A stretch of 64,000 nucleotides of DNA from Minisyncoccota bacterium (GCA_965222715.1 OZ244961.1:462277-526276); one strand, 5' to 3'; shown: positions 3,906 through 55,245, counted from the stretch's first letter. The notes: generated by a model not told the origin, from the letters alone. Program-made: numbers and translations.

Positions 3906-5150
3906 ATGGTAAAAATGCGCAATAAAATATACTCAGCCCTTAGGTGGAGTGAGAAATATACAAAAACCGATATGCTCTACCTCACCAAAGGCGGTTTTTG
4001 GTTATTCTTCGGACAAGCTCTCGGTGTGTTTGTTTCACTTCTTTTGGCCATTGCATTTGCAAATTTAATTGAACCAGAGAAGTACGGAAACTATAAATAT
4101 GTACTTTCACTTGCTGCTATCATTGGTGCATTTTCATTAACAGGACTAAGTACAGCGGTTGTTCGAGCAGCAGCTCGCGGTGACGAGGGGACTCTTAAAT
4201 ATGCTTATAGACTTTCACTACTCTGGAGTGTAGGGATGATTCTCATATCAGGAATTGGTTCAATATATTACTTTCTAAATGAAAATTATTTTCTTTCGTT
4301 TTCACTTATTGTTATAGGTGCCACATCTCCTGTTATTTCTGCCAGTTCTTTATATAGACCATTTCTTTCTGGAAAGAAATTGTTTAAAGAGATGGCATTG
4401 TATGGTGTGCTACAAAGTACACTACCAAACATTGCGGTACTTTTAGGTATATTGATGCGCGCAGAACTTATTTACCTTGTCTGCCTATATTTTCTTACAA
4501 ATGCTATTACCGTATTCTTTCTTTACCAAAAGACTAAAAATTTTGTAGAAAACGAGCACATTGATACACAGAAAACACTACATATTGGCAAACATTTAAC
4601 GGTAATGGGCATTATGTCAAACATAGGAGGAAGGCTTGATAGTATTCTTATCTTCCAACTACTTGGTGGGGCGGAGCTTGCTATATACTCTCTTGCAGTT
4701 ACTTTCCCAGACTTAATTCGCGGTTCATTAAAAAATATTACATCTCTTGCCATACCCAAATTTGCACAGAAAACAAAAAGCGAGATGAAGTATGCGGTTT
4801 GGAGTAAAATGGGTATCTTTCTTTTGGTATCAGGAATAGTTGTTATTATGTATATCTTTTCTGCTCCTTATATTTTTAAGTTTCTTTTTCCTCAATACCT
4901 TGTGTCAATACAGTTTAGTCAGATATATGCACTATCGATTCTCACATCTTTCGTGCTTGCATCTGCATATTTTGATTCACAAGTTGCTGTAAAAGAGCGA
5001 TATATACTTAGTGTTACTAACAATGTAAATAAGATTATCGCAGTAGTTCTTGGAGTGTATTTTTTTGGTATTTGGGGGGCGATAGCTGCACGTTTAATTA
5101 CTCAAGTAATTAACTTTGCCCTTTCTGGAATTCTTATTTACCGAAACTAA
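3906..5150 (+). CDS. Wzx-like polysaccharide flippase (MOP/Polysacc_synt family)
   Basis: 414 aa with ~12 TM helices. Typical flippase topology and glycine-rich helices. Confidence 0.5.
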   Translation: MVKMRNKIYSALRWSEKYTKTDMLYLTKGGFWLFFGQALGVFVSLLLAIAFANLIEPEKYGNYKYVLSLAAIIGAFSLTGLSTAVVRAAARGDEGTLKYAYRLSLLWSVGMILISGIGSIYYFLNENYFLSFSLIVIGATSPVISASSLYRPFLSGKKLFKEMALYGVLQSTLPNIAVLLGILMRAELIYLVCLYFLTNAITVFFLYQKTKNFVENEHIDTQKTLHIGKHLTVMGIMSNIGGRLDSILIFQLLGGAELAIYSLAVTFPDLIRGSLKNITSLAIPKFAQKTKSEMKYAVWSKMGIFLLVSGIVVIMYIFSAPYIFKFLFPQYLVSIQFSQIYALSILTSFVLASAYFDSQVAVKERYILSVTNNVNKIIAVVLGVYFFGIWGAIAARLITQVINFALSGILIYRN

Positions 5151-33747: not shown

Positions 33748-33834
33748 TGTGACTATAGCACAGAAAAATAAAAAATCTAGGTGTTTGTATGTTGGGTAAC
33801 AATAACGTTTAAAGCTGTATCAGGTACTTTCCAA

Positions 33835-34030
33835 GGTGCGGATGCCAAGACTCGAACTTGCCTCCCTGCAGGAGCTGTACACCTTGTCGATATTTTCAGA
33901 GAACATATCTGGCAAGGTCTTGCGAAGCTTCAAGTATTCGCTTCTCACCTCGTCATTATCAGGAGAAACGACATGCGTTTCTCCGCTCTACGCCTGAGCA
34001 CAAGTGGTAGAGCCTTCAAGCTCATTGAAA
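33835..34030 (-). other. tRNA-like remnant: partial duplicate of the tRNA-Ile anticodon-loop/3'-half, interrupted by a ~90 nt insert
   Basis: Minus strand contains CTGATAATGACGAGGT ... GGAGGCAAGTTCGAGTCTTGGCATCCGCACC. This is near-identical to tRNA-Ile positions 32-73, but with a ~90 nt insert between the anticodon stem and T-arm. An upstream GCTCAGG..TAGAGC D-arm-like segment is present. No clean acceptor 5' strand. Confidence 0.3.
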
Positions 34031-34034
34031 TCTA

Positions 34035-34108
34035 GTGCGGATGCCAAGACTCGAACTTGGGACCTCGTCATTATCAGTGACGCGCTCTAACCACCTGAGC
34101 TACACCCG
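34035..34108 (-). tRNA. tRNA-Ile (anticodon GAT)
   Basis: GCGGGTGTAGCTCAGGTGGTTAGAGCGCGTCACTGATAATGACGAGGTCCCAAGTTCGAGTCTTGGCATCCGCA folds as a canonical cloverleaf. CCA is not encoded. Confidence 0.85.
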
Positions 34109-34496
34109 CAAAGTACAGCACATAGTAGCAAAATGAGTCTATAATCTCAACGCCTAGCAGATAACTTAGTGAGTACTTGAAGAATCTTGCAGTATTTGCT
34201 ACCCTCCCTAATGGAATAACCCTAACCTAATTGGAGGCTTTTCGTGTGTCAACGATATAGTGGAAGAAACCATATCCCGCAAGATCAAGGTACGTCGCGT
34301 GAAAACGGAGGTGGCTGCTCCGTTGCCGGCAAGGAAAATAAGTGCCAAGGCAAAAAGAGACTGCCTCGGAAGAGAAAGCGGGACCAAGCATCGAGACCGA
34401 GGAGCGGCTCGATTCTTCAGGCACATTGGGCATGAATACAACAACCGCGCAGATCAGTGATCTGCGCGGTTTCTCGTTACAGCTATCACGGATAGA

Positions 34497-34535
34497 AATA
34501 AAAAACGCCAAAGGTACCTTTGGCGTTTTTTTACG
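34497..34535. terminator. A-run / CGCCAAAGGTACCTTTGGCG hairpin / T-run (bidirectional-terminator-like) inside the 16S-to-tRNA-Ile region
   Basis: Perfect 20-nt palindrome flanked by A7 and T7. Confidence 0.4.
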
Positions 34536-34749
34536 GCTCTGTAGAGCCATTTTTATTAATATACTTTCTTTTGTTCCGTTCAATCTCCAAGTAACGCACT
34601 TCTTGGTTAGCGAGTGTAGCCCCGATATGAAATCGGGACTCCGACAGAACCGTCGGAGATAAGAGTACAACACTATTGCTCTTTCCATGCTCGTACGAGG
34701 CATAGAAGATCGACCGGTTAAGTTGTATACCGTAGTACACAACGTCTCC

Positions 34750-36212
<1,463 letters not shown>

Positions 36213-36536
36213 TCTGCCTTACGACAGTTCATAGAATGAACGAAACAAAAGAAAATATATTAAGTGATTCTCTTTTTTCTGGTTGCCTCGTTGCGACACG
36301 AGGACTTTTTTTGGATTCACAGGACCTGTTTGAAACAGGTCCTTAGACGAACTACACAGCCCCGTCAGAGCTATGTATTAAGGTTCGCACAAATTGCTAT
36401 TCAGTTTTCAAAGGCTGTATTCATAAGTGAACTGAGCCAAACAAAAACTGCCCTACGCAGTTGTAGAAGAGTATATAGGAGTCTAGCTCTAGAGTCAAGA
36501 AAGAAAAAACCGGAAAGTAAAGATGCTTTCCGGTCA

Positions 36537-37283
36537 CTATTTGAGTGGATTTTCCGATCCAAGCAAACCGAGAGTCACTCGAATTGCTGGAAGGTTTCTT
36601 CCAAGGGATATCCGAGTTTTAGAACTCTTTGCATAAGAACGTAAGTGTACAGCAACCACTTCTCCCCTACAGTTTAAAACTGCTGAGCCAGAACTACCTG
36701 GCCGAATTGGCCTTGACGGTAGCTGAGCAATGTATGATTCAAATGCTCGATCTCTACCAAGGAATGTGATTGGAGAAACCATAAATGGCCACCTTGATGG
36801 ATTCCCTACAACAAACCCGCTTTCACCTTCGCGTGGTTCTCGCTCTGAAAAAGTTGCTGGTACAACAGAAGTAAGAGGTGTGGCTACTTCAACAACACCA
36901 AGGTCGTACACTGAGTGGCGAACCCGAAGTGTTATTGTCCGTTCATACTCATTGAGATTTTCTGCAGACGGTAGACGTATATACGAACGTGACATTCTTA
37001 CTAATCGTAGGATGTTATCGAAAGTGAGTATGGGAATATCCCTGCTCTCACCAACTTCATTCAGCTCGACCATCTTCAAAAAATGATGGTTGACTAGCAG
37101 TAATGTAGGAGAGAGAACTACTCCTGTTGCGTGTGCATAGGAACCTCGCTCAACCCCAACCCACACAACTGATGATTCGATATTTCCAAGAATTCTTGGA
37201 CACGTATTTACAGTACTCGCAAATGCAACTTCTCCAATAAAAAACTTGAGAAGAAATATTGCGATGATGCTTAATCGGCACAT
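36537..37283 (-). CDS. Secreted trypsin-like (S1 family) serine protease
   Basis: Signal peptide MCRLSIIAIFLLKFFIGEVAFAS. His region ATGVVLSPTLLLVNHHF. Ser region RPGSSGSAVLN. Confidence 0.5.
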   Translation of the reverse strand: MCRLSIIAIFLLKFFIGEVAFASTVNTCPRILGNIESSVVWVGVERGSYAHATGVVLSPTLLLVNHHFLKMVELNEVGESRDIPILTFDNILRLVRMSRSYIRLPSAENLNEYERTITLRVRHSVYDLGVVEVATPLTSVVPATFSEREPREGESGFVVGNPSRWPFMVSPITFLGRDRAFESYIAQLPSRPIRPGSSGSAVLNCRGEVVAVHLRSYAKSSKTRISLGRNLPAIRVTLGLLGSENPLK

Positions 37284-44678: not shown

Positions 44679-45440
44679 TTATTCTTCGAATGGCGCTCGA
44701 GGAATAATATCAATACTCGTTACCGTTTCAGTAAAACCTTGTGGCCATGTAAATACAATGTCTTCAGATGATTGTCGTGGCAGTAAACTAATGAATGTCT
44801 CTGAGGAACCAATGGCAATATTTTCTGCATTAAAGAGTGTTGCAACAACGGTGATATCAGAAATATCCGTAAATGAGCTATTAGTAATTGTTGCATCAAT
44901 ACGAGGTGTGGTTCCTGCACCCGTTAACACACGCTCTTCAACAGCGATGCCACTGACTGGACGTCCGACACGTTCCCATTGTGGTTCATCAAGAAATTCA
45001 AAGAATGTTCGAGCGACTCTTCGCTCTCCAGTTTGAATTGCACCTTCAAATACTGGAGTGATTGCATTCGGGACAAGGTATGCTCGCCCTTGTCGCTCTG
45101 CAACCAAAATATTACTTTGATCAAAAAGCTTGAATGTGTACGGAACATCACGAACACCTGCATCAAAATTTGGATTATCAATATACGCAACAGCGTTGTA
45201 TACACCAGGAACTACTTCAAACGAACGTGACCAAAGAATTGCTGGTCGATCAACTTCTGAAGGTGCAAGTAGTGTACAAGGGCCACCACGATCTACTCTC
45301 ACCTCTCCTTGATTTTGTACTCCATCAAAACATGTTGGCGCTTCATACCAGAACAAGAAGCTTGGTATGCCAAGAACAAGAAGTAAGAAGAGGAGCACTC
45401 CTCCACCATAGAGCATTTGTCTTTTTCGAGCCCATGACAT
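44679..45440 (-). CDS. Hypothetical membrane-anchored protein
   Basis: N-terminal TM (GGGVLLFLLLVLGIPSFLFWY). 253 aa. Confidence 0.4.
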   Translation of the reverse strand: MSWARKRQMLYGGGVLLFLLLVLGIPSFLFWYEAPTCFDGVQNQGEVRVDRGGPCTLLAPSEVDRPAILWSRSFEVVPGVYNAVAYIDNPNFDAGVRDVPYTFKLFDQSNILVAERQGRAYLVPNAITPVFEGAIQTGERRVARTFFEFLDEPQWERVGRPVSGIAVEERVLTGAGTTPRIDATITNSSFTDISDITVVATLFNAENIAIGSSETFISLLPRQSSEDIVFTWPQGFTETVTSIDIIPRAPFEE

Positions 45441-45774: not shown

Positions 45775-45888
45775 TAAAGCTGGCATCGACCTACTTTCCC
45801 CAACATAGAGTATCATCGGCGCAGAAGGGCTTAACTTCCGTGTTCGGAATGAGAACGGGTGTACCCCCTTCGCTTAAATACCAGCTTT
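45775..45888 (-). rRNA. 5S rRNA
   Basis: Plus strand GGCGCAGAAGGGCTTAACTTCCGTGTTCGGAATGAGAACGGGTGTACC is the reverse complement of the conserved 5S core (CCGAACACGGAAGUUAAGCCC...). Ends are approximate. Confidence 0.55.
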
Positions 45889-46048
45889 AAAGGTGCGAAA
45901 AAATGTAAGAATATAAGCAGCGTTCAGATTTCCTAATAAGAGACAAACGACGAATTAGTACTCCTTGGCTAAACACATTACTGTGCGTACACCGAGAGCC
46001 TATCACCTAATCATCTCTTAGGGGTCTATGATTTCTTATCTTGAGGTT

Positions 46049-46081
<33 letters not shown>

Positions 46082-46225
46082 GTTCCCGACATAGCTACTC
46101 GGCAGTGCTCCTGGCGGAACAGCCGATACACCAGAGGTCAGTTCATTCCGGTCCTCTCGTACTAGGAACAAATCCTCTCAAAAATCGACGCCTACAGCAG
46201 ATTAAGACCAACCTGTCTCACGCAT

Positions 46226-46558
46226 GTTCTCATACATTACTGTATGCATTGGACTGTAGCTTTAACTGACACACCATTACAGTGCACAGATAACTGACGT
46301 TCAGTCTCTACGGGCTGAAAATTAATTTTCATTCCCTCGGTATTGTCCTTTGGAAGAGGATTCTACCGATATTAGTCAGCTTGTTCCCGATGTAATATCG
46401 GGACCGCCGTGATTGGATTGCTTAATTCCCAACCCTTTATTAAAGGGTTGGGATCCCGATTGTTACATCGGGACTTATTTCATAGACGAAAAGAATCGAT
46501 TTGTGTCGTTAGAGTGAGCGCAGACTGTGTAGCATTCCATTCAAAGAATCAAATACTA
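46226..46558 (-). other. ORF-less intron-like insertion (~330 nt) in 23S domain V
   Basis: The 23S blocks GAGCTGGGTT.AGA.CGT and CGTGAGACAG are adjacent in E. coli near position 2585. Here they are separated by ~330 nt with no rRNA counterpart. No ORF over 60 aa spans the whole insert. Confidence 0.5.
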
Positions 46559-46694
46559 CACGGTCTGAACCCAGCTCGCGTACCTTTTTAATTGACGAAC
46601 AGTCAAACCCTTGGGACCTTCTCCAGCCCCAGGATAAGGTGAGCCGACATCGAGGTGCCGAACATTGCCGTCGATATGGACTCTTGGGCAATAC

Positions 46695-46728
<34 letters not shown>

Positions 46729-47210
46729 AATCTCCAGTGCCGTCTAAAGGCAACTGTCGGTTCACTATGCTCCGCTTTCGCGCCTGCTCGAGATGTACCT
46801 CTTGCAGTCAAGCCCTCTTTTGCCATTACACTATCGGCACGGTTTCCATTCGCGCCTAGAGGACCTTAATAGACTCCTCCGTTACTCTTTAGGAGGAGAG
46901 CGCCCCACTCAAACTACCCACCAGATACTGTCTCTCGACGTTTTTTCCGTCGAGGTTAGAGAATGCAAAATAAAAGAGTGGTATTTCACTGACGACTCCA
47001 CTACCCCCAAAAGGGTAGCTTCAAAGTCTCCCACCTATCCTACGCAGTTATTTCACACCCCCAATATCAAGCTGTAGTAAAGCTCCCGGGGTCTTTTCGT
47101 CTAGCTGCAGGTAACCGGCATCTTCACCGGTATTGCATTTTCACCGAGCTCTTCCTCGAGACAGTGCCCCAGTCGTTACACCATTCGTGCACGTCTAAAA
47201 TTACTAGACT

Positions 47211-47257
<47 letters not shown>

Positions 47258-48078
47258 CAGGGCTTACACAGTCCAGCATATCTCTAAAAGAAATATACCC
47301 CCCGTGCTTAACCTTCTGGCATTGGTCAGGCGTCACCCCCTATACATCCTCTTACGAGTTCGCAGGGAGCTGTGTTTTTGGTAAACAGTCGCCAGGGCTC
47401 TTTAGCTGCGGCCTACGCAGCCAATAGAGGATTCGATATTGTACATATCGAACACAACACCTATATTGTCTCAATTATTTTCTTCTCAGTTTGAACTCCT
47501 CTATTGGCTGCACAGGCAGACCTTATTCCGAAGTTACGGTCGCTGTTTTGCCGAGTTCCTTGAGGAAGACTCACTCGTTCGCCTTGGTCTACTCGACCTG
47601 ATCACCTGTGTTGGTTTGCGGTACGGTTTTACGAATACTGAAGCTTAGAGGCTTTTCTTGGAAGCGTGCTCCTCTGAATTTGCTTTGGCGAACCGCCACA
47701 TTTCCGCTCTTCTTGGAGTTAGTGTTGCCCGGACTTCCCTAAGCAACCTCCTCAAAGCACGGACGCAAATCCGATAATGCGCTCAGAGTACAACACTCCG
47801 TCCCCTCGTCGCATATTCGTAAAGTCATGGAATATTGACCATGTGTCCATCGTCTCCCCCCTTCGGGATCGACTTAGGCCCGACTAACCCTTCGCTGATC
47901 TACATCGCGAAGGAAACCTTGATCTTTCGGCGGGCAGGAATCTCACCTGCCTTGCGGTTACTCGTGCCAACATTCTCACTTCCATACGCTCCACCATGGG
48001 TTATCCCTTTGGCTTCATCGCAGAATGGAACGCTCTCCTACCGCTTATGAACTTCATTGAGGACCTAAACGAGCGTTT

Positions 48079-48155
48079 AGGAAAATCTTGGTTGCCGCCG
48101 GGGAGATTCGAACTCCCGACCTCGTCCTCACGAAAGACGCGCTCTACCACTGAGC
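48079..48155 (-). tRNA. tRNA-like element (Thr-like, anticodon CGT) embedded in the 23S intervening sequence; imperfect acceptor stem
   Basis: GCCGTTCGTAGCTCAGTGGTAGAGCGCGTCTTTCGTGAGGACGAGGTCGGGAGTTCGAATCTCCCCGGCGGCAACCA. Canonical D-arm, anticodon arm (loop TTCGTGA) and T-arm. The acceptor has a mismatch and an extra nt. Confidence 0.4.
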
Positions 48156-48185
48156 TACGAACGGCATTTTATCCAAGATTGTGTT

Positions 48186-48261
48186 TGGCTGAGGTGGCAG
48201 GGGTCGAACCTGCAACCTCTCGCGTTTTAAGCGAGTGCTCTACCATCTGAGCTTCACCCCA
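48186..48261 (-). tRNA. tRNA-like element (Phe-like, anticodon AAA) embedded in the 23S intervening sequence
   Basis: TGGGGTGAAGCTCAGATGGTAGAGCACTCGCTTAAAACGCGAGAGGTTGCAGGTTCGACCCCTGCCACCTCAGCCA. Full cloverleaf with encoded CCA. Anticodon loop TTAAAAC gives A34-A35-A36, which is unusual. Confidence 0.4.
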
Positions 48262-49096
48262 TTCACCAAACAACAAAAAGAACTATGGAAGGCTTGATAC
48301 AATGACCCAAACCAACCACACGATAATCAAGGAAGTTCCCACTCCCCCAATGATAGTATTTCGGTTTAGTGCCATAGCACACCTCCTATTTTCCTCAATG
48401 AAATTCACAAGCCCCCAGTTTCGGTATCATACTTAGCCCCGATCATTTGCGGCGCGACATCTCTGAATGAGTGAGCTGTTACGCTATCTTTAAAGGATGG
48501 CTGCCTCTAAGCCAACCTCCTCATTGTCTGAGAAATCTCACCTCCTTAAGTGCACTGAGTATGAATTTTGGGACCTTAACTTGGGATCTGGGCTGTTTCC
48601 CTTTTGACCAGTGGAGCTTAGCCCCCACAGTCTAACTGCCGTACTGTAACTGTTGGTATTCGGAGTTTGATAGGAGTGACGAGGTTTCCCCCTATTCACA
48701 CCTTCCAGTGCTCTACCCCCAACAGGATCATACGACGCTAACCCTAAAGCTATTTCGGAGAGAACCAGCTATTACTCGGTTCGATTAGCTTTTCACTGCG
48801 TACCACAGGTCATCCGAATGCGTTGAACGACATTTCGGTTCGGGCCTCCATCTGTGTTTCCACAAACTTCACCCTGCCCATGGTAAGCTCACCGAGCTTC
48901 GGGTCGTATGCACACTACACTTATTTCGCGCTATTCACACTCGGTTTCCCTGTGACTCCACCCGAAAAGGGCTTAGCCTGCAATATACATACACTCGTTG
49001 GCTCATTCTTCAATAGGCACGCGGTCATGGCGCAAGCGCCACTCCCACTGCTTGTAAGCGTGTAGTTTCAGGTCTATTTCACTGTCCTCACCGGAC

Positions 49097-49135
<39 letters not shown>

Positions 49136-49861
49136 ATCTGAAAAAGTATTTAGCCTTACCAGTTAGTGCTGGCAGATTCACTCAAGCTATTCGTGTCTTG
49201 AGCTACTCAAGAACAACAACAAAAGAGTTGTAGAAGTTTTCACATACGGGACTGTTACCCTCTGGGGTGCTTCTTCCCAAAAGCTTCTGTTAACTTTACA
49301 ATTTGTAACTCTTCTTGTTTTAAAAACAAACGTTGTTGCCTTACAACCCCCGATACCACCTCCGTCACCTGACCATACAGATGGCAGAGGTGAAATCAGG
49401 TTTGGGCTACTCCCCGTTCGCTCGCCGCTACTACGGGAATTCCTATTGGTCTCTTTTCCTCCAGGTACTGAGATGTTTCACTTCCCTGGGTGCGCTCCTT
49501 TGCGTCAAGCACAAAGGTAACTACCTAACGTAGTTGGGTTTCCCCATTCGGAAATCTCCGGGTCAAAGGTTGCTAGTCACCTCGCCGAAGCTTATCGCAG
49601 ACATGCCACGCCCTTCATCGCCTTTTTCAGTCTAGGCATCCACCACACGCTCTTCAGATCTCCTATTAGGAAATCTAAAAACCGCTTATAAACTTACATT
49701 TTGTTTATGTCCCATCTTTCTTTTTGTTTAAAGAAAAAGATGGGACTTACCTGCATGAACCTCCTCTCTCCGAAAGTGTTGAAAAGAGGTTCAAGCTATT
49801 ATGACGTTGTCAAAGAGTCGCGTAATTCCCTATGAGCTTTTATATATCACTAGTCATCAAA

Positions 49862-51410: not shown

Positions 51411-52058
51411 TTAACGAGCAGAGAATGAATCCCCATCGTATTCATCCCCTAGTGAGTTGAGCACTGTTTGGTGTGGGAAATCGAAAAGGTCACGAAGAAG
51501 CTTGTCGTAAATATCCATGCGATACATAAAATCTTGTGTTGAAAAAAGTGCGTAGCGTAACTCTCGCCCAATCTCAGACTCTATATCTCGCACTGCTCGT
51601 TCGAGCTGTGTATCTTTAATGCGATCTCCTACAACCAACAGATCAAGTGATCCATTCCAATCTTGAATAAAAGTACCCGCAACAACAACCAGTTTTGGAT
51701 TCCCTGCAGTCTTTAGCTTTTTAACAATTTCGTTTTTGTGAATTGGGGTTGCAGTGAGAAGAAAATTTCGTAATGCAACTAAATATTTAAATCGAGTATC
51801 GAGTGTCCAGCCTCTTACTTTTTTCTTTTTTATTTTTTTTGCTTTTCCACGCCCCACCTCATTCTCAATATAAAATGTTCGACGTTTAATAAGACCAATG
51901 CTTTCCATCATCGAGACTTCTTTACGGACAGTAGTTGCAGCAACGCGGGTGCGTTTTGCAATTGTCGTATTGTCAAAGTTCTCCCCTTCATTAAAGAGAA
52001 ATAGTCGGAGGATTTTCACCCGAGCAGGACTACCAAACAGTTTTCCAAGAATTTGCAT
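51411..52058 (-). CDS. Hypothetical protein with N-terminal winged-helix DNA-binding domain
   Basis: ARVKILRLFLFNEGENFDNTTIAKRTRVAATTVRKEVSMMESIGLIKRR resembles a MarR/ArsR-like wHTH. Confidence 0.35.
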   Translation of the reverse strand: MQILGKLFGSPARVKILRLFLFNEGENFDNTTIAKRTRVAATTVRKEVSMMESIGLIKRRTFYIENEVGRGKAKKIKKKKVRGWTLDTRFKYLVALRNFLLTATPIHKNEIVKKLKTAGNPKLVVVAGTFIQDWNGSLDLLVVGDRIKDTQLERAVRDIESEIGRELRYALFSTQDFMYRMDIYDKLLRDLFDFPHQTVLNSLGDEYDGDSFSAR

Positions 52059-53170: not shown

Positions 53171-53230
53171 AGTATCTTAATTACCTAGTAATCCCGATGC
53201 TTTGATCGGGACCCCGATAGTGTATCGGGG

Positions 53231-53722
53231 TTATGCTTCTTTCTTTTCAGCAACTTGCCCAAGTGCAATAACCAATCCTTGAATTGGTGAATTGATCACA
53301 TTAGCAAACTGTCCGTAGAGTGTCTGAAGTGGTGGAATTGATGCAATCACCGTCATCTCATCTTTGTTCATCAATTTCTGCTCGAACACTCCTCCGAGAA
53401 TTGAAAGCTCATCTTTATGATCTTTAGCAAAGGCGTGGACACCTCGTGCGGGGGCAACCGCGTCGTCTCCCCACGCAAGAGCAAGCTCTCCTTCGAGCTC
53501 AGGCACCTCGCCTTGAAGACCAGCGTCGTTAAGTGCGCGGCGTACCAGTGTCTTTTTTGCTACAAAGTACGTCACGTTATCTTCCTTAAGTTTTGCACGC
53601 ATCTCATTGGTGTCAGTCACCCCAAGACCATGGAAGTTCACAAACACCACTGAAGCAGCATTCTTGAGTGCCTCAGTAAGTTTTGCGAGTGTTTCTTCTT
53701 TTTGTTGATATGTTTTTGCCAT
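53231..53722 (-). CDS. rplJ: 50S ribosomal protein L10
   Basis: MAKTYQQKEETLAKLTEALKNAASVVFVNFHGLGVTDTNEMRAKLKEDNVTYFVAKKTLVRRAL. Confidence 0.8.
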   Translation of the reverse strand: MAKTYQQKEETLAKLTEALKNAASVVFVNFHGLGVTDTNEMRAKLKEDNVTYFVAKKTLVRRALNDAGLQGEVPELEGELALAWGDDAVAPARGVHAFAKDHKDELSILGGVFEQKLMNKDEMTVIASIPPLQTLYGQFANVINSPIQGLVIALGQVAEKKEA

Positions 53723-54335: not shown

Positions 54336-54824
54336 CTACTTTCCTTCAACAGAGCGCTTGAGTGACTCGGCACGCCACCCCACCATATTTGAAAGTAATT
54401 GGAGAAATGTTGCGACTCCCGCAACGGCAAGAACAAGTATCACGAACCACGCGTACGGCGTGAGGTAGTAGAAAAAGACAACGGCGAGTGCTGCCCACAC
54501 TCCGAAACACCACGGACACCCGAGTAGATCGTGGAGTGTGCGCAATGGTCCTCGTACGTACGGCTGACGCACTACCACCATATCACCACCCTCTTCTGAA
54601 ACGACAGTCTTTCGTACAAACCAATCACGAACAAACTGCGTTACTTTGTCATACACAAAGAGCCGAGTGAGTCTAAATGTTGCAAGAATAATGAGGGTAA
54701 AATCAAAGAGTGAAATAGCAATGGGTAATCTGCCAAGTGAAAAGAGTAGCCACCCAGCAGCTATAAACAGTCCTACAAAAAGTAGTGAAAAGATAAAGTT
54801 CCAGACACCTTGATCATCATGCAT
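54336..54824 (-). CDS. Hypothetical integral membrane protein
   Basis: Four predicted TM helices. CPWCFGVW motif. Confidence 0.4.
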   Translation of the reverse strand: MHDDQGVWNFIFSLLFVGLFIAAGWLLFSLGRLPIAISLFDFTLIILATFRLTRLFVYDKVTQFVRDWFVRKTVVSEEGGDMVVVRQPYVRGPLRTLHDLLGCPWCFGVWAALAVVFFYYLTPYAWFVILVLAVAGVATFLQLLSNMVGWRAESLKRSVEGK

Positions 54825-54936
54825 ATAAAAATAGTATACCCTACTTACAACATCACATCGAGATACTTGACTGTATTATTTATACATGATATAATAAAAA
54901 ATAAAAATGACTTAAGTGATACAAGGAGGTACCGAC

Positions 54937-55245
54937 ATGTCATTACACCACACAGCTCAGCGAGGACTGGAATTTCTCGCCCAGCACAAGGGTGCTGATC
55001 TCTTTCTTGAGTACCTCAAGAAGAGAAATGTGATTCGACTGTACGCAGGTTCGTGTTCTCTCACGGTGCCAGCGTTTATCAACATCTGCACCCTCTACGG
55101 TATCGCGATACAGGTGCGTGACGACAAGGAGAAGTTACATGGGCTCAACCCAGAACTCCCTTCCCTCCTGTTCATCGTACCGGATCACATCCAGATACTG
55201 ATCGAGAACGCTTCGATCAAAGACGGCGAAGTTGTGTTCTCCTGA
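54937..55245 (+). CDS. Hypothetical protein
   Basis: Canonical AGGAGG 6 nt upstream of the ATG at 54937. The ORF-track start at 54916 would include the SD. Followed by terminator CCCCCCGAGCATTCGCTCGGGGG plus T at 55261-55290. Confidence 0.4.
   Translation: MSLHHTAQRGLEFLAQHKGADLFLEYLKKRNVIRLYAGSCSLTVPAFINICTLYGIAIQVRDDKEKLHGLNPELPSLLFIVPDHIQILIENASIKDGEVVFS

Follow-up and report, generated by a model that had tools for sequence, protein, structure and literature searches.

The closest described counterparts of the locus analyzed here are Parcubacteria that lack an anti-Shine-Dalgarno (anti-SD) motif in their 16S rRNA. According to the available part of one survey, only 48% of Parcubacteria yield a detectable anti-SD (Tsurumaki 2022, RNA 28:1041, PMC9297842), and the available text of a second study describes Campbellbacteria and Wolfebacteria as SD-scarce and devoid of CCUCC (Estrada 2024, PMC10783764). 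Genomes without an anti-SD are also documented in other phyla, namely in Flavobacteriia, insect endosymbionts and haemotropic mycoplasmas (Lim, Furuta & Kobayashi 2012, PMC3457768).

Here we analyze a 16S rRNA gene of a tiny, uncultured member of the candidate phyla radiation (CPR); the gene lies within a 64-kb stretch of DNA (the window), which also sets the genomic scope of this work. As far as the available parts of the two Parcubacteria papers (PMC9297842, PMC10783764) extend, the window resembles their anti-SD-less members in clade, as judged by 16S similarity and the names of matching records, and in its missing CCUCC, scarce SD motifs and small rRNA. Those parts report the absence of the motif; a tail consensus, a trailer hairpin, a stand-alone 16S unit and −10 boxes adjacent to start codons are not described in them. 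The genomes of Lim et al. (PMC3457768) share with the window C-to-U/A changes within CCUCC, a lost SD signal and a variant common to the clade, but they belong to unrelated phyla, carry other replacements (UCUCA, UCUCU, UUUGA and others) and have no reported conserved cis hairpin. As in lineages that lack an anti-SD, the window 16S has no CCUCC in its tail, the genes show no SD enrichment, and the variant tail is shared by related species. We put at roughly 88% the probability that the locus is a native and functional 16S rRNA gene of a lineage of Paceibacteria (Parcubacteria, CPR/Patescibacteria) without an anti-SD core, in which CCUCC became AUUCC by substitution and not by insertion, the gene forms its own transcription unit, and translation initiates independently of SD pairing. 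For this CPR lineage, the absence of the anti-SD is normal and has been reported before; it reflects neither an intron nor a broken copy.

The 16S rRNA gene and its 3′ tail

The Rfam model RF00177 matches the minus strand from 36210 to 34751 over model positions 1–1533, at 1379.6 bits (threshold 50), identifying a full-length gene of 1460 nt (34751..36210) whose alignment runs end to end with no gap and no truncation. A preliminary description of this DNA had portrayed the 16S rRNA as intact through helix 45 and GAUCA but without a canonical anti-SD, and had proposed a covariance-model (CM) check; the RF00177 alignment agrees with that portrayal, covering the entire model and ending at 34751 with no 3′ truncation or insertion. 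The position of the mature 3′ end is taken from the same model. Helix 45 (CACGGGUAGC-GGAA-GCUGUUCGUG; 34764..34787, minus strand) is intact in the CM alignment, its arms at 34787–34778 and 34773–34764 enclosing GGAA and leading directly into GAUCA (34763–34759). Across 100 loci this helix is 99.7% paired, with compensatory changes in six of its ten pairs.

Beyond GAUCA, the sequence reads AUUCCAAU, for which the bacterial counterpart is CCUCCUUA. In a separate scan of the 3′ block, the model sequence ugGAUcACCUCCUUu and the 16S sequence UGGAUCAAUUCCAAU align ungapped at maximal posterior probability. The tail (34751..34763, minus strand) has the form GAUCA-AUUCC-AAU and has homologs in relatives; the anti-SD core CCUCC (E. 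coli 1535–1539) is absent from it, and the CM alignment places AUUCC (34758–34754) at those positions. Elsewhere in the gene, near 34894 (E. coli position 1396), a U stands against the A of the Rfam bacterial consensus (GUACUCACCG vs GUACACACCG). U at this position is common to at least 119 GTDB species, almost all of them CPR, and the change provided the signature for the GTDB scan described next.

Conservation of the tail in relatives

GTDB, with one genome per species, was scanned for a 16S signature (CCTTGTACTCACCGCCCGTCA) located ~150 nt upstream of the tail, so the tail itself was not under selection in this search. At least 119 loci were recovered, nearly all from Patescibacteria. The sequence GGAUUAAUUCCAAUUGGACACGU or close variants of it (GGAUUAAUUCCAAUUGGA-type tails) occur in at least about 60 species, including Paceibacteria, Kaiser-, Nomura-, Yonath- and Vogelbacteria and similar groups, and the window tail (GGAUCAAUUCCAAUCGGAGACGU / GGAUCAAUUCCAAUCGGAG) is plainly homologous to these CPR tails of GGAUUAAUUCCAAUUGGA type. 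Among the matches listed, a dozen tails are canonical or near-canonical and others are AU-rich; again among the matches listed, the window 16S is 86–88% identical to the best GTDB representatives, and the complete relatives CP060229 and OZ253947 have one 16S-signature match each. An exact 22-mer of the window tail gave 0 matches in a metagenome scan, and a looser scan with GGAUCAAUUCC / GGAAGCTGNNCGTGGATCAATTCC added 47 further contigs with homologous (A)UUCC tails. The closest metagenome contigs (L141 and L145) have 94% 16S identity to the window over ~750 nt. No paper containing the tail sequence was found in a literature search.

The best GTDB 16S match among those listed (L104; NZ_JAXHLU010000017.1, 260 kb; 87.7%) belongs to a MAG labelled Fodinibius sp. 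(Balneolales), yet carries a 16S of Parcubacteria type; the public record is probably misbinned or mislabelled.

These comparisons bear on the fallback offered in the preliminary description, which allowed for either a non-canonical tail or a pseudo-copy. The former holds, as a trait of the clade. The latter, in its broader form, would make this locus a degenerate copy or an assembly artefact, with a functional canonical 16S elsewhere in the genome. Our view is confined to a single 64-kb window, which leaves room for a second copy, but the full-length match with its intact helix 45, the equally intact promoter-like site, stalk and terminator described below, and the recurrence of the same tail and trailer in independent assemblies all argue against a pseudo-copy, as does the lack of SD motifs before the surrounding genes, which is what one would predict with no canonical copy in use. 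We regard this explanation as very improbable, and favor a native 16S with a substituted tail.

According to the available part of Tsurumaki 2022 (PMC9297842), anti-SD-less Parcubacteria overlap with the group lacking uL1. Within the 64-kb window, rplJ (uL10) and rplL (bL12) are found at 53722–52646 (minus strand), with neither rplK nor rplA upstream, and the 610 nt between rplJ-rplL and the next gene (DUF1360) contain no sizeable ORF.

A covarying hairpin at the former anti-SD positions

The remnant UUCC of the tail (34757–34754) is predicted to pair across an AAUC loop with GGAG (34749–34746), four nucleotides downstream, in a mini-hairpin (34746..34757, minus strand) supported by covariation. 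A CM was built from helix 45 and the tail hairpin and used to align 100 loci (alignment A3); MAFFT had produced an ungapped tail alignment with the 3′ arm out of register, and the CM alignment was used instead. In this alignment, which is fitted to the structure and consists of mutually related sequences, 91.6% of the hairpin cells are paired and 22 cells carry double changes, compared to 2.9 ± 1.5 after shuffling (0/500). Changes on both sides are seen in 4/4 pairs, and registers slid by 1–3 columns give 1–12 such cells. The pair types observed are UUCC/GGAA, UUUC/GAAA, UUCA/UGA, GUC/GAC, CUCC/GGAG and UCCC/GGGG. The hairpin is weak, with 3–4 bp and about −2.0 kcal/mol, and is lacking in about one fifth of the tails, these being AU-rich.

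The canonical-tail sequences of our sample form a hairpin at the same position, the 16S/ITS junction, with the same architecture, in which CUCC pairs with GGAG (CCUCCUUUCUAAGGAG; L007, L014, L116, L025, L075). The CCUCCUUUCUAAGGAG junction hairpin is familiar from the ITS sequences of Firmicutes. In both the canonical and the window form, the anti-SD positions pair with a complement located 3–7 nt downstream, but the arms of the window hairpin are UUCC/GGAG, its stem is shorter and weaker (−2.0 vs −5.9 kcal/mol), and its 5′ arm, unlike that of CCUCCUUUCUAAGGAG, is no longer able to serve as an anti-SD. Judged from sequence, the tail hairpin looks like a descendant of the canonical junction hairpin that was kept after its 5′ arm lost its anti-SD identity. 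This clade-wide element may act as a determinant of 3′-end maturation, may mask the tail in the precursor, or may persist as part of the mature rRNA. Most CPR have lost Era, the reader of GAUCACCUCC (PMC10582724).

The last of these roles would turn the hairpin from a precursor-only element into a cis mimic of the SD·anti-SD helix, lodged in the platform cleft of the mature ribosome. Some incentive to consider it comes from h26, which contacts the SD duplex and for which the available text of Tsurumaki 2022 (PMC9297842) records an unexplained high conservation in Parcubacteria. The hairpin moreover shows covariation and persists across tails from canonical to derived, and in close relatives its loop and 3′ arm are as conserved as its 5′ arm; yet it is weak, and in canonical-tail sequences the 3′ end of the Rfam model precedes the 3′ arm of CCUCCUUUCUAAGGAG. 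The mature 16S ends of E. coli and B. subtilis also lie before the 3′ arm of a hairpin of this type. We therefore consider retention in the mature rRNA unlikely.

Proposed organization of the 16S transcription unit

A promoter-like site (TTGACT, 17-nt spacer, TATACT; 36470..36498, minus strand) lies ~260 nt upstream of the 16S rRNA and would drive the gene, from 36498 to 36470, as a transcription unit of its own. The leader and trailer of this unit are complementary: the 5′ half of a processing stalk (36233..36263, minus strand) pairs with its 3′ half (34556..34586, minus strand), which is conserved in relatives, to form a predicted stalk of 30 bp. This complementarity was found by blastn self-comparison, and co-folding pairs 30/31 positions, 27 of them contiguously, compared to at most 13 contiguous pairs in shuffles. 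RNAduplex applied with shuffles to the whole leader and trailer was non-discriminating (−57.7 vs −47.1 ± 4.9) owing to promiscuous pairing among AU-rich sequences; the contiguous-run measure and the blastn self-match were used. Stalks with the core UCUUUUGUYYCGUYCA / UGRACGRRACAAAAGA occur in the loci of at least 30 relatives, with contiguous runs of 15–27 bp (shuffled maxima, 12–17), and their trailer halves begin 110–200 nt after the 16S end (~165–169 nt in the window). The E. coli rrn leader–trailer helix similarly consists of a long pairing between 5′ leader and 3′ trailer that encloses the 16S. In E. coli the trailer half lies 33 nt after the 16S end, whereas in the window it lies ~165 nt after it, and the window unit contains the 16S alone and ends in a terminator. 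CPR keep RNase III (rnc), RNase J and PNPase (PMC12641178), and we infer that the stalk is a substrate of RNase III.

The ~165 nt that follow the 16S body are predicted to be structured. Co-folding gives a 9-bp hairpin, H1, with a UACG loop (34722..34743, minus strand), which is found at the same position in relatives with compensatory changes, and a second hairpin, H2 (UUCUAUGCCUCGUACGAGCAUGGAA; 34683..34707, minus strand), which also shows compensatory changes and is conserved in sequence in L141, L128, L164, L136 and L158. The trailers of these five loci align with that of the window through stalk and terminator. Two extra hairpins, CUCCGACG..UGUCGGAG and CCCGAU..AUCGGG (34621..34658, minus strand; alignment A4), form a module that is an insertion relative to L141, L128 and L164 and is present in L158. 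Directly after the stalk, where L141, L128, L136, L158 and L164 have equivalents, stands an intrinsic-terminator-like hairpin (34500..34531, minus strand) with a 14-bp stem between A and T runs, potentially bidirectional, which the preliminary description had recognized as an A-run/palindrome/T-run hairpin; transcription of the unit would end here, at 34531–34500. A second strong hairpin, of 13 bp, follows at 34443..34471 (minus strand). RNAalifold run without the leader paired GAUCAAU with the start of the 3′ half of the stalk, a structure we rejected, as it shows no covariation and competes with the stalk.

Further along the same strand, tRNA-Ile (GAU; 34036..34109, minus strand) is preceded at 13 nt by a promoter-like site (TTGAGA, 17-nt spacer, TG-TACTAT; 34122..34150, minus strand), from which it would be transcribed separately. 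In relatives, tRNA-Ile lies 240–2900 nt after the 16S, sometimes on the opposite strand, and no 23S was found within several kb of the 16S. The rRNA genes of the window are unlinked, with 16S–tRNA-Ile (34036–36210) and 23S–5S (45778–49666) on the same strand ~9.5 kb apart, separated by SecD, SecF and other protein genes.

The downstream CACCUCC motif

The preliminary description had proposed that a terminal intron or insertion of ~440 nt follows GGAUCA and is later removed, such that a displaced CCUCC downstream would be the real anti-SD. The motif exists: CACCUCC is present on the rRNA strand at 34313–34307 (34307..34313, minus strand), ~200 nt before tRNA-Ile (34109–34036), and the 23S rRNA of the window does carry insertions, one of them group-I-like. 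The match criterion was loose, however, in that any CCUCC would have counted, and CACCTCC occurs 13 times within the window.

Neither group I nor group II intron models matched within 33800–36300 in a permissive Rfam scan (E-value ≤10), so the group I CM search suggested in the preliminary description came back empty; the scan returned only weak sRNA-type matches, on the terminator hairpin. This negative result is meaningful because the same library recovers a weak group I signal from the window's 23S. The 16S is uninterrupted at S1506–S1516, which we take to be the classical intron sites, situated 5′ of or inside helix 45. A 3′ exon resuming past an insert was not found, the SSU model being complete at 34751 without one. 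An intron would also be expected to occur sporadically, but the flanking trailer is conserved in relatives, and the nucleotides that follow GAUCA are conserved in ~100 related sequences.

The surroundings of CACCUCC point the same way. The stalk and terminator lie ~190 nt upstream of it on the rRNA strand, so that the processing stalk and two terminator-like hairpins separate it from the 16S, and the ~300-nt spacer that holds it (34150–34443) has no homolog in any relative compared. Given its position beyond the stalk and terminators, its non-conserved spacer and its 13 copies in the window, CACCUCC would fall outside the 16S transcription unit, and we judge it to be a chance match. We accordingly give the terminal-intron proposal next to no credence, and substitution within an uninterrupted tail is our preferred account.

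Four ORFs in and around the spacer (34260–34460, 34244–34435 and 34342–34662 on the plus strand; 34227–34766 on the minus strand) match no Pfam family. Their tblastn matches to relatives fall within the trailer, on both strands and in several frames, which reflects nucleotide and not coding conservation, and a coding reading was rejected.

Insertions in the 23S rRNA and a dispersed hairpin

The 23S gene (45934–49666, minus strand) carries two insertions. The first, of ~359 nt (48050–48405), occupies the terminal loop of a helix at position 1218 of the Rfam LSU model, the classical helix-45 IVS site. Its base stem is extended (CAUUGAGGA..UCCUCAAUG), and two tRNA-like genes lie within the insertion on the rRNA strand: 48261–48189 (61.9 bits), with the unusual anticodon AAA, and 48164–48094 (50 bits), with the anticodon CGU (Thr). 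A literature search found no IVS punctuated by tRNAs, and an insertion of this type is absent from three other loci that cover the same 23S region (L005, L082, L015). The second insertion, of 343 nt (~46217–46559, minus strand), lies between GGGUUCAGACCGU and ACAGGUUGG, by our own reading at the E. coli ~2593 group I intron/I-CreI homing site. It has no ORF and yields a sub-threshold Intron_gpI match at 46230–46454 (39 bits vs a gathering score of 50); this is the 23S intron of the preliminary description.

That description had also pointed to a CCCGAT...ATCGGG hairpin shared by the post-16S segment and the 23S intron, and the element indeed recurs at 34621, 46386 and 46455. In all, CCCGAT-N5/6-ATCGGG is found five times in the window (0 expected): once in the 16S trailer (34621–34637), twice in the intron-like 23S insertion (46386–46402 and 46455–46472) and twice in the rplJ-rplL spacer (53193–53210 and 53213–53229), constituting a dispersed stem-loop element.

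SD usage and translation initiation

The preliminary description credited the genes in the window with canonical SD sequences, citing 54925. The cited example is real; the generalization did not survive counting. The upstream regions of 47 long ORFs are A/T-rich, and SD 4-mers, SD 5-mers and complements of the new tail occur there at chance level. Scoring every in-frame ATG, GTG or TTG within the first 50 codons for GGAG, GAGG or AGGA at −16 to −5, we found 8/140 candidate starts with an SD 4-mer, against 9.9 expected (ratio 0.81). With the same script, an E. coli K-12 control (49 kb) gave 35 vs 9.9 (ratio 3.54; 57% of genes), and 16 long contigs of relatives gave 53 vs 53.9 (ratio 0.98). This E. 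coli-controlled test supersedes an earlier pool of 8-kb GTDB loci, in which the canonical-tail group was small and likewise unenriched.

Two observations indicate some residual SD-like signal, and count against a full loss of SD usage. AGGAG was mildly enriched in the earlier pool of relatives (19 vs 4.6 expected), and AAGGAGG, for which ~0.04 occurrences are expected by chance, precedes the ATG by 5–8 nt in two of the ~47 window genes. These two cases may represent relics or recent transfers, or may have some other origin; the genes concerned (36537–37283, minus strand, and 54916–55245, plus strand) comprise a Trypsin_2 peptidase and a 109-aa ORF without a family.

A different way to retain mRNA pairing would be for AUUCC(AAU) to act as a re-specified anti-SD that recognizes GGAAU or UUGGAAU upstream of genes. 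There is a precedent of sorts in class iii of Estrada 2024 (PMC10783764), which, in the available text, lacks CCUCC yet shows 16S–mRNA binding. In the window, however, GGAAT is found upstream of one of the 47 genes (0.6 expected) and TGGAA and TTGGA upstream of none; in relatives, any deviation of GGAA, GGAAT and TGGAA is towards depletion. The duplexes predicted for either tail with the regions before starts are less stable than those with gene interiors, the window tail giving −1.55 kcal/mol upstream vs −2.75 kcal/mol in coding controls. A re-specified anti-SD is thus hard to credit here.

A candidate substitute for the SD is visible at the starts themselves. A −10-like box (TAYAMT-like) ends 6–14 nt before the ATG in 29% of window genes, whereas a control offset gives 7% and E. 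coli 0%; examples are the genes at 3906, 44679–45440, 51411–52058, 53231–53722 and 54336–54824. Separately, A occupies position −3 in 28/47 genes. The placement of −10 boxes beside start codons suggests that leaderless or near-leaderless mRNAs are widespread in this organism, and many of its genes would then be translated from transcripts with very short leaders or none.

Implications

For the reading of such genomes, the locus carries two cautions: start codons will be misplaced by any gene caller or reader that presupposes an SD, and the lack of CCUCC should not be mistaken for a sign of an intron or of a pseudogene. The window further presents the complete anatomy of a stand-alone CPR 16S unit, from promoter-like site and stalk to structured trailer and terminator. 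To the published loss of the anti-SD it adds a covarying hairpin that uses the former anti-SD and −10-like boxes directly before start codons; judged against the available portions of the literature, only the covariation of the hairpin, a modest new detail, and the leaderless signature go beyond what has been reported. Should the hairpin be retained in mature 16S, an outcome we consider doubtful, UUCC-loop-GGAR would fill the platform cleft beside h26, thereby tying the ribosome to SD-free initiation on leaderless mRNAs. Independently of that, the −10-like boxes directly before the starts point to leaderless translation as the mechanism that may have replaced SD-dependent initiation in this lineage.
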